Positions 12,001-15,000 of a stretch of 15,821 nt of DNA are shown in pieces. Location: positions 1 to 15,821 of IMG/VR virus record IMGVR_UViG_2537562194_000030. One strand, given 5' to 3'. Within the stretch, counting starts at the first letter, position 1; the number at the start of each line of letters is the position of its first letter. The DNA comes from a virus (lineage: Duplodnaviria; Heunggongvirae; Uroviricota; Caudoviricetes). Made by a program: the position numbers.

Positions 12001-15000
12001 GGCAGAGTACTAAAGATATTGATGAGTGGATAAAAGATGAACGGATAGTATATCCCTCAAGGGTGATCAACCAGGAGATTGATAATTACTATTTTCAAAA
12101 AAATGCAAAAATTTCCACTGAAGAGAGGCAAAGAGTCTTTTTTCTTGTGAGCCAGGAGAATCAACTAACCCTTGATGTTAAGGCAGCACAAAGTTCTATT
12201 AATCATGTAATAATGGGGAGTGCTTCTTTTGGCAAGAAAATGGATGCTCTTTGTGATGGTATGAGCCGGGATGTAAAAAATCGTACATCAGATACCATAG
12301 CAAACTTGCTTGCGGACAAGTTTTACCAGAAACATATCGATTCGGATATTGATATTGTAAAACTACGAAATGATATCCCAGATTATTTGATGCGTGCTAT
12401 ACAGGGATGAGGCTAGAGGAGAGGACTGCTTCAGCATCATCGGCTTCGGACCAGTAAAAGAGACGCAGAAAATGCACAACGGCACCACACGCCATGCATG
12501 GATTCAGATTACTCATGGCTCACCAGTACAGCTATAAATCGTAAAGAAAACTACAGTACGTTATACACAGAAACGTACCGTGATTCATTATTTATTGTAC
12601 AGGTTCATCGCAGCGACAATATTTTGTGATGTTTGCGTGGTGCGCCCCACTTCAGGATGCTGCAGATCTGGAAATTGCAACGGAGGAAGAAACCTCATTG
12701 CTGGAAGCCTAGAAAAAGTATCGGGTGTTGCTGAACCGTGTTGATACATCAACTGCACCTGATATTGAGTGGCCGGAAGAACCAGACACAATGTAAGCGA
12801 AAAAGAAAAACCGCAGACACGACGTATGCAGGACGTGCTGCGGTTGGCTGGTGAACTTTCGATAGTGCGAGTATTGAATGATTTCCAGCCGTTACCGATT
12901 TTACGTGTTAATTAGTGAACAAACCACTCGTCAGCAGACTTCCAGGTATCTTTCAGAGTCTCCTGAACAAAAGTTTTAGCTGAATCTTTATCGGCGGTGC
13001 GCGTAACAGAAAGGCCATCGTTGCTGGTGGCTTTTACGATCACCTCTACATCGTCATAACGTTTACTGATGCGTCGGGTTAATTCTTCCTTTAACGCATC
13101 CACAGCACCGTTTGGCATTTTAGTCATTTTCTCTTTGGCTATGCAGATTTCAATACGCATAAAAATCCCTCTATACTGTGTTTGTATACAGTATTATTTT
13201 TATCTGTATAAATAAACAGTGTCAAGAGGTCTTGTTTCTGCTCTTTTGGAGTTCTTCAAAACGATTATGTAAAGATTTCGGATACAGTTCGGTATATACC
13301 TGCCATAGCACGTTTAATGAACGATGCCCTGTAACTTGAGCGACTTCCTCAATACTAAAACCAGCCTCAAATAAGCGACTTGCCCCTTCTCTACGCAAAT
13401 CATGATATCGCAGATCTTTAATACCTAATTTGCTTCTTACCCTCTGAAATCCTGCGGTAACAGAAGTGCTGTTATATGGAAAAATGAATTCTGATTTTTT
13501 TGGTTGTCGCTGGACGATATCCCAGGCTTCCCCAAGCAAGGCAACTTTCATATGGTTACCTTCCTTTTTACGTGGATCTTTCCTATCTCTTACTAGTATA
13601 GATTTTTGTTCTTGGTCGAGATCTTCCCATCGTAACCGGCATACTTCTCCGATTCGCATACAGGACCACACAGAAAATTTGAGGATATCAACGAACGGAA
13701 TTTTTGAGCATTTATGAGTAGATCGTTGTTGAAGGCCTTCAATGAGCATGTCAAGTTCATCAGATGCTGGTCTACGATTACGACGGTTTGATTTACCAAT
13801 CAAACCGAGTTTAAGTAGATATGGACGAGCGCTTTTCGCCGGGTTTGATGTGTAATTGATTCCGTATACAGGTTTTGCCGCATCCAGAACACTGCCAAGA
13901 TAACTAACATCGTGGCTGACTGTTGCTGGGCCTGCACCAGCGTTGTTTCTTAGCCTGCAATGTTCAATTACGTCATTTTCTGTCAGTTCAGATAGTTTGA
14001 TCGCGGATATGTCACTATCCATAAGCAGTTCCAGCACATATCTTTTAGTACGGCCTGCTTTACCTCCGGCATTTGGGTCATTTAAATATTTGTGTAGTAA
14101 GTCACGGACTGTAAGTCCGTCAACTGCATTTGATGATGGAATGCCATATAGATCTAATTCCATCACTTTCTGTGTGCCCCATGTTTTGGCATGAGCATGT
14201 TTAGGGAATGTTTTGCTTTCCCTGTAAGTGATAACACCTTTTTCTTTGATAATCACATTACAGCGATAGCGTGGTGTGCCATCGGATTTTAGTCGTTTCT
14301 CTATGTTATAGTACGCCATTACACGACCTCGTTATTTCGGGTTCCCATAAAACGTGGGAACCTGTGCGGGAACCTAACGCGAGAAAAATAGCCTGAAATG
14401 TTCAAAAATGCACGATAATCATGAAGCACAAAAAATTAATCAAACCAGCGTGATGCCTGAAAAAACTGGTGTTTACTGGAATTCTCGGTTTAGCATTGCT
14501 CCTATGCTCGACTGGACGGACAGACATTGCCGCTATTTCTTGCGTCTGCTTTCCCGCAATACGTTGCTGTATACCGAAATGGTGACCACAGGGGCGATTA
14601 TTCACGGTAAAGGTGATTACCTGGCGTACAGTGAAGAAGAACATCCGGTAGCGTTGCAACTCGGCGGTAGCGATCCGGCGGCGCTGGCACAGTGTGCGAA
14701 GCTGGCAGAAGCGCGTGGATATGATGAGATCAACCTGAATGTCGGCTGCCCGTCTGACCGGGTGCAGAACGGCATGTTTGGTGCGTGTCTGATGGGTAAT
14801 ACGCAGCTGGTTGCCGACTGCGTGAAAGCGATGCGCGATGTGGTGTCGATTCCAGTGACGGTGAAAACGCGTATTGGCATCGATGACCAGGACAGCTATG
14901 AATTTCTCTGCGATTTCATCAACACCGTTTCCGGCAAAGGCGAGTGTGAGATGTTTATCATCCACGCACGTAAAGCCTGGCTTTCGGGGTTAAGTCCGAA

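Follow-up and report, generated by a model that had tools for sequence, protein, structure and literature searches.

Three described arrangements resemble the locus analysed here, in which a 3′ fragment of the tail fibre assembly gene tfa lies near the right end of a lambda-like prophage. In prophage DLP12 of E. coli K-12, the gene order tfaD-ybcY-tfaX has a cargo gene on the minus strand with a 3′ tfa fragment on its right, again at the right prophage end. Lambda-like prophages of EHEC and EPEC carry exchangeable effector loci (EELs), a term that we take from PMC8112680; its passages on EELs and fibres mention no tfa stub and do not contain the term "tail fiber". Lastly, phage mEp460 (NC_019716) carries a similar tfa stub and is viable. 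Literature searches yielded nothing specific on tfa stubs that border effector loci.

The window, by which we mean the whole stretch of 15,821 nucleotides, can be compared with each of these (Table 1). K-12 tfaX shares 84.6% identity with window positions 12644–12773. However, tfaX is broken at nt 409 instead of nt 433, and its left partner is the region upstream of ybcY rather than that of ykgJ. DLP12 also differs in having a near full-length tfaD upstream and appY in place of dinI downstream. As in EELs, an nleG relic, espW, nleG and espM2 are clustered at a lambda-like prophage end, past the tail fibre genes. Pfam places T3SS_NleG domains at 9241–9720 and 10987–11637, while espW and espM2 were recognised by their PGAP names. 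The T3SS effector genes thus lie between the tail fibre genes and the end of the prophage at dusA, the position that characterises an EEL. In the window, the right border of the locus is a double scar of truncated ykgJ-like and tfa sequences (ykgJ′/tfa′), followed by dinI. In mEp460, as in the window, the tfa stub is followed in the same order by dinI and by a 365-aa integrase of the dusA type, at 95–96% identity over 12651–14511. In contrast to the window, mEp460 has no effector genes, and its tfa is broken at nt 440, with the stub lying 37 nt past a 1202-aa lambda-like stf. Our preferred reading, to which we assign a probability of about 0.8 as a whole, is that the stub belongs to an inert scar, built up in layers by recombination, where a dusA-integrated lambda-like prophage has its right end.

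Table 1. Features around the tfa stub, in window coordinates.
Feature	Position	Strand	Evidence
Side-fibre module: collagen-like stf and 89-aa Phage_fiber_C gene	7816..9137	+	Pfam, PGAP, alignments
espM2, T3SS effector gene whose insertion truncated the ykgJ-like gene	11820..12410	+	PGAP name; Pfam IpaB_EvcA, E=2.3e-29
5′ relic of ykgJ-like gene, ~28–36 codons, frameshifted, cut by espM2	12411..12516	-	BLASTP, DNA identity
Region upstream of the ykgJ-like relic	12517..12643		Alignments, folding
3′ relic of tfa, codons 145–194 and stop	12644..12796	+	Translation, DNA identity, PF02413, PGAP pseudogene
TAG for Trp167 (ancestral TGG)	12710..12712	+	Translation, alignment, 61-mer counts
Intrinsic terminator of the dinI-like gene, hairpin then UUUUUCUUUUU	12798..12845	-	RNA folding
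dinI-like gene	12912..13160	-	Pfam DinI, E=1.1e-18
dusA-type tyrosine integrase (13222–14319) and phage-derived DNA	13222..14511	-	Pfam Phage_integrase, mEp460

Translation identifies the stub as the final 50 codons and stop codon of a lambda-type tfa, numbered here as in lambda. At the DNA level, the stub is 95.4% identical to lambda tfa nt 433–563, 96.2% to K-12 tfaD and 97.7% to tfa of Salmonella phage SPF_0923. Alignment to intact tfa reveals a break at nt 433. Once its Trp codon is restored, the stub matches the Pfam family Caudo_TAP (PF02413) with E=2.4e-23, covering only profile positions 84–130 of 131. PGAP/RefSeq annotates a tfa pseudogene at identical coordinates, described as "internal stop; incomplete; missing N-terminus". 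The original prediction of a 3′ remnant of about 50 codons is confirmed by these data. The stub is a non-functional tfa relic whose pseudogene status is already part of the public annotation. It makes no Tfa, since it has no start codon, no N-terminal fibre-binding domain and an internal stop; an intact Tfa reading frame spans ~190 aa. Nor does it directly follow a cognate lambda-type stf, as ~3.5 kb of effector genes intervene. A second, complementing tfa was searched for with tblastn and blastn, and no further tfa-like sequence, including the 5′ 432 nt, was found in the window; none is annotated in the matching 95NR1 prophage. A split gene of the tfaD...tfaX kind was rejected, as no 5′ part was found in the window. 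Taken alone, the stub is an unremarkable pseudogene of a prophage, already flagged by RefSeq.

The DNA to the left of the stub (12411–12643) had been described as devoid of recognisable coding content. It in fact consists of the 5′ relic of a minus-strand ykgJ-like gene and the DNA upstream of it. The relic starts with an ATG at 12516–12514 and reads down to ~12411, although it is frameshifted and can be recognised as ykgJ-like only over its ~28 N-terminal codons. Pairwise BLASTP aligns it to the YkgJ N-terminus with 21 of 29 residues identical (72%, E=8e-14). Window positions 12432–12580 show ~84–86% DNA identity both to ykgJ on the chromosome and to the FHI_NMBU_03 prophage. Any match to this stretch was found in 5035 of 5426 E. 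coli genomes, and in most of these it is the chromosomal ykgJ locus. The relic region further matches gene H0002 of phage VT1-Sakai, annotated as "similar to YkgJ". Full-length YkgJ matches PF03692 (CxxCxxCC) with E=2.4e-11; the fragment, which is no full-length CxxCxxCC protein, has no Pfam match. The VT1-Sakai annotation unites this gene with dinI in a single SOS-regulated unit on the minus strand, without tfa.

Upstream of the relic, positions 12517–12580 are shared with the chromosomal ykgJ locus and contain a hairpin at ~12547–12576. The remaining 63 nt (12581–12643) occur only beside junctions of the nt-433 type. Compared with the 3′ flank of dinI, of which they might have been a diverged copy, they show no similarity beyond that of shuffled sequence (alignment score of 16 against a shuffle mean of 15.7). 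The label "IS630 family transposase" attached to this spacer was also discarded: the match stops at the edge of the IS and reflects homology to the 3′ flank of espM1.

The junctions bear on the order in which the scar was built. The nt 433 end of tfa is joined to ykgJ-upstream DNA and not to effector DNA. An identical junction exists in FHI_NMBU_03, downstream of an intact tfa and an alpha/beta-hydrolase gene, in a stretch that has no annotated effector genes over the part examined. Of 549 genomes with the spacer at ≥80% coverage, 349 reach ≥99%, which leaves ~200 that carry it without the espM2 allele. Moreover, the paralogous espM1 is flanked by the same ykgJ relic and spacer (75.7% identity over window 12300–12634), which argues that espM entered a pre-existing ykgJ′/tfa′ scar before espM1 and espM2 split. 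The tfa break thus probably predates the effectors, with espM inserted later into the ykgJ-like gene. This order rests on shared junctions and divergence rather than on a dated phylogeny. The espM2-tfa′-dinI block was counted in 348 genomes, the same number as for a 61-mer containing the TAG codon, and from this equality we infer that the two sets coincide. Prophages of O157 (at ssrA) and O111 (at dusA) share a block that is 98.7–100% identical and diverges right after dinI, at 13226.

Under the preferred reading, the history of the locus would comprise five steps. In an old event, an illegitimate join would have brought a ykgJ-like cargo gene on the minus strand, with the DNA upstream of it, up to tfa nt 433, leaving the part of tfa for the conserved C-terminal domain together with its native downstream dinI terminator and dinI. 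An espM-type effector cassette would then have entered the ykgJ-like gene at around codon 36, before espM1 and espM2 diverged. In the espM2 lineage, Trp167 would have changed from TGG to TAG through deamination of 5-methylcytosine on the complementary strand of CCTGG. Subsequently, the block of stf, effector locus, tfa stub and dinI would have moved between prophage backbones via homologous recombination, so that it now adjoins ssrA in O157:H7 and the dusA integrase in O111:H8. The stub itself would persist as a remnant that no longer codes for Tfa, presumably owing to its small size, its neutrality and its position between genes that are kept. As part of this reading, we regard it as an ordinary and probably inert prophage scar. 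This reading is useful in that it corrects the picture of the scar, which would have been built in layers, with tfa′ first, ykgJ′ next and espM last, and which phages without effectors share.

Stubs of this kind also arose elsewhere. We found at least five independent tfa junction types, with breakpoints at lambda tfa nt 409–488. Besides K-12 tfaX (nt 409), these are the type described here (nt 433, two IMG/VR loci), the mEp460 type (nt 440, 13 loci), a type with its break at nt 465 (10 loci) and a fusion to a pin-like invertase at nt 488 (8 loci). Together, the nt 433, 440, 465 and 488 classes account for 33 of 120 IMG/VR loci. Longer remnant-like classes, broken at nt 188, 201 and 311, are also present. 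Judged from sequence, such tfa stubs are common, and the lineage is widespread and independent of effectors.

This recurrence raises a second, more tentative reading, in which the last ~130 nt of tfa and the dinI terminator have been kept as a shared homology arm at the right border of exchangeable cargo loci. All five junction classes (409, 433, 440, 465 and 488) retain only the last 98–177 of 585 nt. The chance of this is (93/501)^5, or ~2e-4, in a hand calculation that assumes uniform breakpoints left of the search pattern; that pattern lies at nt 502–524, so complete tfa losses were invisible to it and the sample is biased accordingly. The block behaves as a homology island, since many alignments end at window position 12774 and both flanks differ between phages. 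In addition, the order tfa, cargo, tfa′ recurs in K-12 tfaD-ybcY-tfaX and in the FHI prophage, and the cargo block has moved between backbones. Tfa proteins combine a variable N-terminal with a conserved C-terminal domain (PMC9608196). Against retention as a homology arm, short stubs are expected even without selection, as direct repeats around cargo recombine away and pseudogenes erode; the longer remnant-like classes count against it too, and no crossover inside the block has been demonstrated. We therefore consider it possible, with odds clearly against it, that the 3′ block is a recurrent and perhaps selected recombination joint in lambdoid prophages. If it were, it would explain why at least five junctions keep this piece and how effector cassettes move blockwise between phage backbones, and would help to explain the exchange of cargo loci at lambdoid prophage ends.

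The original prediction offered a different account, namely that the effector island took the place of the 5′ portion of tfa and that this, together with a frameshift in stf, points to side fibres in decay while the effectors are kept. The 5′ part of tfa is indeed missing from the window, and the effectors separate the stub from the fibre genes. The frameshift is also real in this sequence: stf has lost 1 nt in GGGGCCGGG at ~8658, and a second 1-nt loss affects an A7 run at ~8879 in the Phage_fiber_C gene (8868–9137). Moreover, stf has an in-frame loss of 261 nt of collagen repeats. In 95NR1, the corresponding prophage has a broken portal gene, a broken tape measure gene and an IS1203 insertion, which would fit a decaying phage. 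However, the partner of the broken tfa is ykgJ-upstream DNA, the same junction exists free of effectors and beside an intact tfa, and the espM1 flank indicates a scar older than espM2. Replacement of the tfa 5′ part by the effector island is hence not supported, and a scar that predates the effectors should not be taken to mean that the fibre chaperone was lost through their acquisition.

The state of the side fibre itself adds little to that account. In the near-identical 95NR1 prophage stf is intact, and none of 5426 complete E. coli genomes matches the stf stretch of the window at ≥99%; the twelve matches listed all align in two pieces. The stf lesions are therefore either private to this sequence or assembly artefacts. 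The resident Stf is of a 438-aa collagen-like type, which sets its module apart from lambda-type stf-tfa pairs. No lambda-type tfa accompanies this fibre in relatives: VT1-Sakai has the same ykgJ′/dinI end and no tfa sequence at all, and ~30 Stx phage records among the matches listed appear to share this tfa-less end, as judged from the match pattern only. Given these relatives, and a similar stub in the viable mEp460, the stub is no more than a weak sign of fibre decay. Thus, while the frameshift stands, the proposed decay of the side fibre with retention of effectors gains little from the stub, and we consider this account as a whole, with effector-driven deletion of tfa and loss of the side fibre, unlikely.

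A reading of the region as the small RNA IS009 (Rfam RF02111) is very improbable. It stems from a cmscan match at 12525–12753 with E=5e-25, but the score of 105.5 bits falls below the gathering score of 117, and real homology is confined to the tfa half of the match. The same model scores the intact tfa coding sequences far higher, with 227.8 bits for K-12 tfaD and 217.7 bits for lambda tfa, which indicates that RF02111 models tfa coding DNA. A weak match to CssrB (26 bits against a threshold of 76) was dismissed.

The predicted Trp-to-stop change was verified and replaces W167 in lambda numbering. Exact matches to a 61-mer carrying TAG number 348 among complete E. coli genome records, against 1585 for the same 61-mer carrying TGG, with an annotated tfa gene in every one of the 30 matches listed. 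These counts show that TAG is real, derived and fixed in this lineage. The view that the frame is open and TAG an error of sequencing or assembly, for which nothing speaks beyond the single-base difference, deserves practically no credence when 348 independently assembled complete genomes carry the identical TAG 61-mer and when, even with TGG, the stub would lack a start codon and 144 codons.

The context of the change points to its possible source. In the ancestral allele, found in the 1585 records, GCC-TGG creates the Dcm site CCTGG, which here reads GCC-TAG, placing a G-to-A change at the position of a CCWGG context that Dcm would methylate. For lacI, Coulondre and Miller reportedly described in 1978 amber hotspots at Dcm sites, caused by deamination of 5-methylcytosine at CCWGG. 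The tfa stub resembles these hotspots in its CCTGG ancestor, in a G-to-A change such as complementary-strand deamination would give and in the recurrence of the change in a second stub class. Among the IMG/VR loci, G500 to A was seen in none of 80 intact genes, all of which have TGG, and in 5 of 33 stubs from two junction classes. The stubs with TAG include 3 of 8 in the unrelated nt-488 class, while mEp460-type stubs retain TGG. None of the 113 sampled loci showed the corresponding change on the top strand, C498 to T. Deamination at the Dcm site as the origin of TAG is consistent with the data, and its recurrence in the nt-488 class is suggestive support from sequence comparison; that class could instead have received TAG by gene conversion.

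Downstream of the stub, the DNA is that of a prophage right end. The dinI terminator directly follows the tfa stop codon, with a predicted hairpin of -19 kcal/mol (z=-3.76; none of 200 shuffles was as stable). It was found by RNA folding, a simple terminator scan having missed it on account of its loop size. The DNA after the stop is collinear with that following the intact tfa of SPF_0923, which belongs to an intact stf-tfa module (85% identity over window 12644–12909). Upstream of the dinI-like gene, we identified by sequence reading a LexA box at 13174–13193 (TACTGTGTTTGTATACAGTA) and by promoter scan a promoter-like site at 13225–13196; VT1-Sakai has an annotated SOS box in the equivalent position. 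Phage-derived DNA reaches to ~14511 and takes in the first ~104 nt of dusA, and phage mEp460 is 96.5% identical to the window over 12665–14511. In 95NR1, a dusA fragment is found at the opposite prophage end.

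Alignment to intact tfa genes bears out the original prediction that tfa is reduced to its last ~50 codons and carries a Trp-to-stop change. The stub corresponds to nt 433-563 of the intact gene (95.4% identity to lambda, 96.2% to K-12 tfaD and 97.7% to Salmonella phage SPF_0923), or codons 145-194 in lambda numbering, with W167 replaced by TAG at 12710-12712. When the Trp is restored, the stub matches Pfam Caudo_TAP with E=2.4e-23, over the last third of the profile only. No second tfa-like sequence was found elsewhere in the window, and no further tfa gene is annotated across the whole prophage of 95NR1, an O111:H8 strain with a near-identical prophage. 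In O157:H7 and O111 genomes, PGAP calls the exact stub coordinates a tfa pseudogene ('internal stop; incomplete; missing N-terminus'). The stub is an ordinary pseudogene relic, annotated already.

A sequencing error, which could have explained the TAG, is not borne out. The exact 61-mer with TAG was found in 348 complete genome records, as many as there are genomes with the whole espM2-tfa'-dinI block. With TGG instead, the 61-mer is present in 1585 records, each listed example lying within an annotated tfa gene. The TAG is therefore real, derived and fixed in this lineage. The ancestral GCC-TGG contains a Dcm methylation site (CCTGG), in which deamination of the complementary strand's 5-methylcytosine yields CCTAG (TGG to TAG), a classic amber hotspot. 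Searching IMG/VR with a 23-mer taken from the stub gave 120 loci, of which 80 have full or near-full tfa homology, with TGG in all, and 33 are short 3' remnants that fall into four junction classes (see table). The G500-to-A change was found in 0 of the 80 intact genes versus 5 of the 33 stubs, in two unrelated junction classes, and no matching top-strand change at CCTGG was seen in the sampled IMG/VR loci. This distribution is consistent with a Dcm hotspot and suggestive of it, though not proof; gene conversion is an alternative source of the recurrent TAG. The sister copy of the stub in strain FHI_NMBU_03 (L005 4212-4347) has an 8-nt deletion that falls exactly on the Trp167 codon, with a TGGAA repeat on either side, which is a second, independent inactivation at this spot.

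Features in gene order, in window coordinates, and classes of short 3' tfa stub, in tfa gene numbering
Feature	Position	Strand	Basis or remark
J
lom
stf
Phage_fiber_C gene
nleG relic	9241-9720		nleG-family gene without N-terminus
espW		-
nleG		-
espM2	11820-12410	+	T3SS effector gene
ykgJ-like 5' relic	12411-12516	-	YkgJ similarity
Upstream region of ykgJ-like relic	12517-12643		ykgJ homology
tfa stub	12644-12796	+
dinI-like gene		-
LexA box	13174-13193		matches that of VT1-Sakai
Integrase		-
dusA
Stub class	nt 433		window type, TAG; IMG/VR scan
Stub class	nt 440		mEp460 type, 13 loci; IMG/VR scan
Stub class	nt 465		10 loci; IMG/VR scan
Stub class	nt 488		8 loci; stub fused to Pin-type-invertase-like fragment (flank sequence reading)

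The 230 bp preceding the stub had been described as lacking coding content, but their minus strand encodes, from an ATG at 12516, an N-terminal fragment of YkgJ (21/29 residues identical, one frameshift, E=8e-14). Positions 12432-12580 are 84-86% identical to the ykgJ locus, and weaker similarity extends as far as the espM2 stop codon. A search with this upstream DNA matched 5035 of 5426 E. coli genomes, with the ykgJ locus in most listed matches. The annotation of phage VT1-Sakai places a dinI-like gene together with a gene 'similar to YkgJ' in a single minus-strand unit after a LexA box, and the window has a matching box. Taken together, the ykgJ homology and the VT1-Sakai unit identify the ykgJ-like relic and its upstream region. 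For the 63 nt at 12581-12643, matches were limited to other copies of the ykgJ/tfa junction and the espM1 flank. The chromosomal ykgJ-ecpE region of strain 7A (L004 1501-1842) matches window 12432-12580 and 12823-13052. Directly upstream of its ykgJ gene, which had matches in most of the E. coli genomes screened, lies a relic of the dinI terminator and dinI 3' end (86% and 75% identity). Since this order is that of the dinI and ykgJ-like unit of lambdoid prophage ends, the chromosomal locus has the look of a fossilised prophage end or of a cargo gene that was captured.

That the effector island replaced the 5' portion of tfa is not the best reading. The partner joined to tfa nt 433 is ykgJ-upstream sequence, and effector DNA is not at the junction. 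Strain FHI_NMBU_03 carries the identical junction in the order intact stf, intact tfa, minus-strand alpha/beta-hydrolase gene, ykgJ relic and tfa stub, with no effector gene annotated in the stretch examined. The full spacer occurs without the espM2 allele in ~200 genomes, and the 3' flank of the paralogue espM1 also contains the ykgJ relic and the spacer (75.7% identity, reaching to an IS630 insertion). In the simplest order, the ykgJ/tfa junction would have come first, then an insertion of espM into the ykgJ-like gene, and last the divergence of espM1 from espM2.

The stub and a frameshift in stf had also been read as decay of the side fibre. The frameshift is present: the window stf has lost 261 nt of collagen-like repeats in frame between 20-nt repeats at 8604 and 1 nt in GGGGCCGGG at ~8658, and the following gene has lost 1 nt in an A7 run at ~8879. 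The 95NR1 stf copy is intact and the window's stf stretch matched 0 of 5426 complete E. coli genomes at ≥99%, so these lesions are either private to the window sequence or assembly artefacts. The resident stf is of a 438-aa collagen-like type, followed by the 89-aa Phage_fiber_C gene. VT1-Sakai has a ykgJ-like gene and dinI directly after its collagen-like fibre module and lacks tfa altogether, and ~30 listed Stx phage records are tfa-less at this prophage end, as judged by match pattern only. Given these tfa-less relatives with the resident fibre type, the stub is a fossil of an earlier module and no missing part of the present fibre. Apart from the supposed lack of coding content, the original observation is confirmed; its interpretation is partly supported.

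K-12 tfaX represents a fifth junction class, with a break at nt 409. All five classes retain only the portion for the conserved Tfa C-terminal domain; in Tfa proteins this conserved domain serves trimerisation, and the N-terminal domain, which binds the fibre, is variable (PMC9608196). Short 3' tfa stubs are common. The clustering of their breakpoints may point to a recombination joint, an idea of fairly low probability; bias could explain it just as well, as the 23-mer search is blind to complete tfa losses and long repeats are unstable. In the eight nt-488 loci, a fragment ~100 nt upstream of the 23-mer, resembling a Pin/Gin-type invertase N-terminus (RPGLKRALKRLQKGDALVVWKLD, translated flank), is joined to tfa nt 488. 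TGG is kept in L025, L037, L073 and L117, and 3/8 have TGG-to-TAG (L023, L041 and L115); several carry a second tfa 3' copy ~980 nt downstream.

On the right side of the stub, the DNA 3' of the tfa stop is collinear with that after intact tfa in SPF_0923 (window 12644-12909, 85%), and this flank is native. A strong minus-strand dinI terminator follows the stop (RNA fold, -19 kcal/mol, z=-3.76), then a U-run. A promoter-like site and the dinI-like gene flank the near-consensus LexA box (TACTGTGTTTGTATACAGTA), and this gene is probably SOS-induced. Lambda 24162-24256 (L009 5263-5357), in the b region past ea47, shares 95 nt at 90.5% identity with window 12811-12904 (dinI terminator and flank); lambda appears to carry a relic of the same dinI-type end. 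Rfam IS009 (RF02111) was rejected at 12525-12753, where its score is below threshold and the family matches tfa coding DNA. RF02111 matches intact tfa coding sequence at 218-228 bits (L010 4857-5055, L009 3417-3615) and seems to represent part of a protein-coding gene, not a small RNA.

The lambda-like prophage whose right end makes up the window is inserted at the dusA 5' end in O111:H8-type E. coli; positions 11800-15821 match 95NR1 and further O111:H8 genomes at 100% identity. In the viable phage mEp460 the end likewise consists of the same tfa stub, dinI and integrase, and its homology stops at 14511, 104 nt into dusA, where the prophage therefore terminates. Across 13222-14511, which takes in the integrase plus ~104 nt from the start of dusA, identity to mEp460 is 96%, so the phage supplies the dusA 5' end, as expected of dusA-integrating elements. 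In 95NR1, a dusA 5' fragment lies at the opposite prophage end. The O111 prophage at dusA and an O157:H7 prophage beside ssrA share the stf-to-dinI block at 97-100% identity. Their identity stops right after dinI (13226), and in gene J it is just 87%. The cargo block has evidently been exchanged between prophage backbones. The nleG relic, a pseudogene in 95NR1 and O157 annotation, is a further decayed gene within the effector locus proper. Between tail genes L and K lies a 1.7-kb insert (355-2038), not present in 95NR1, with two genes for Arc-like repressors and one for a P22-type antirepressor that is split into two ORFs (P22_AR_N, P22_AR_C). With its broken ant gene, the insert amounts to an immI-like cargo block.
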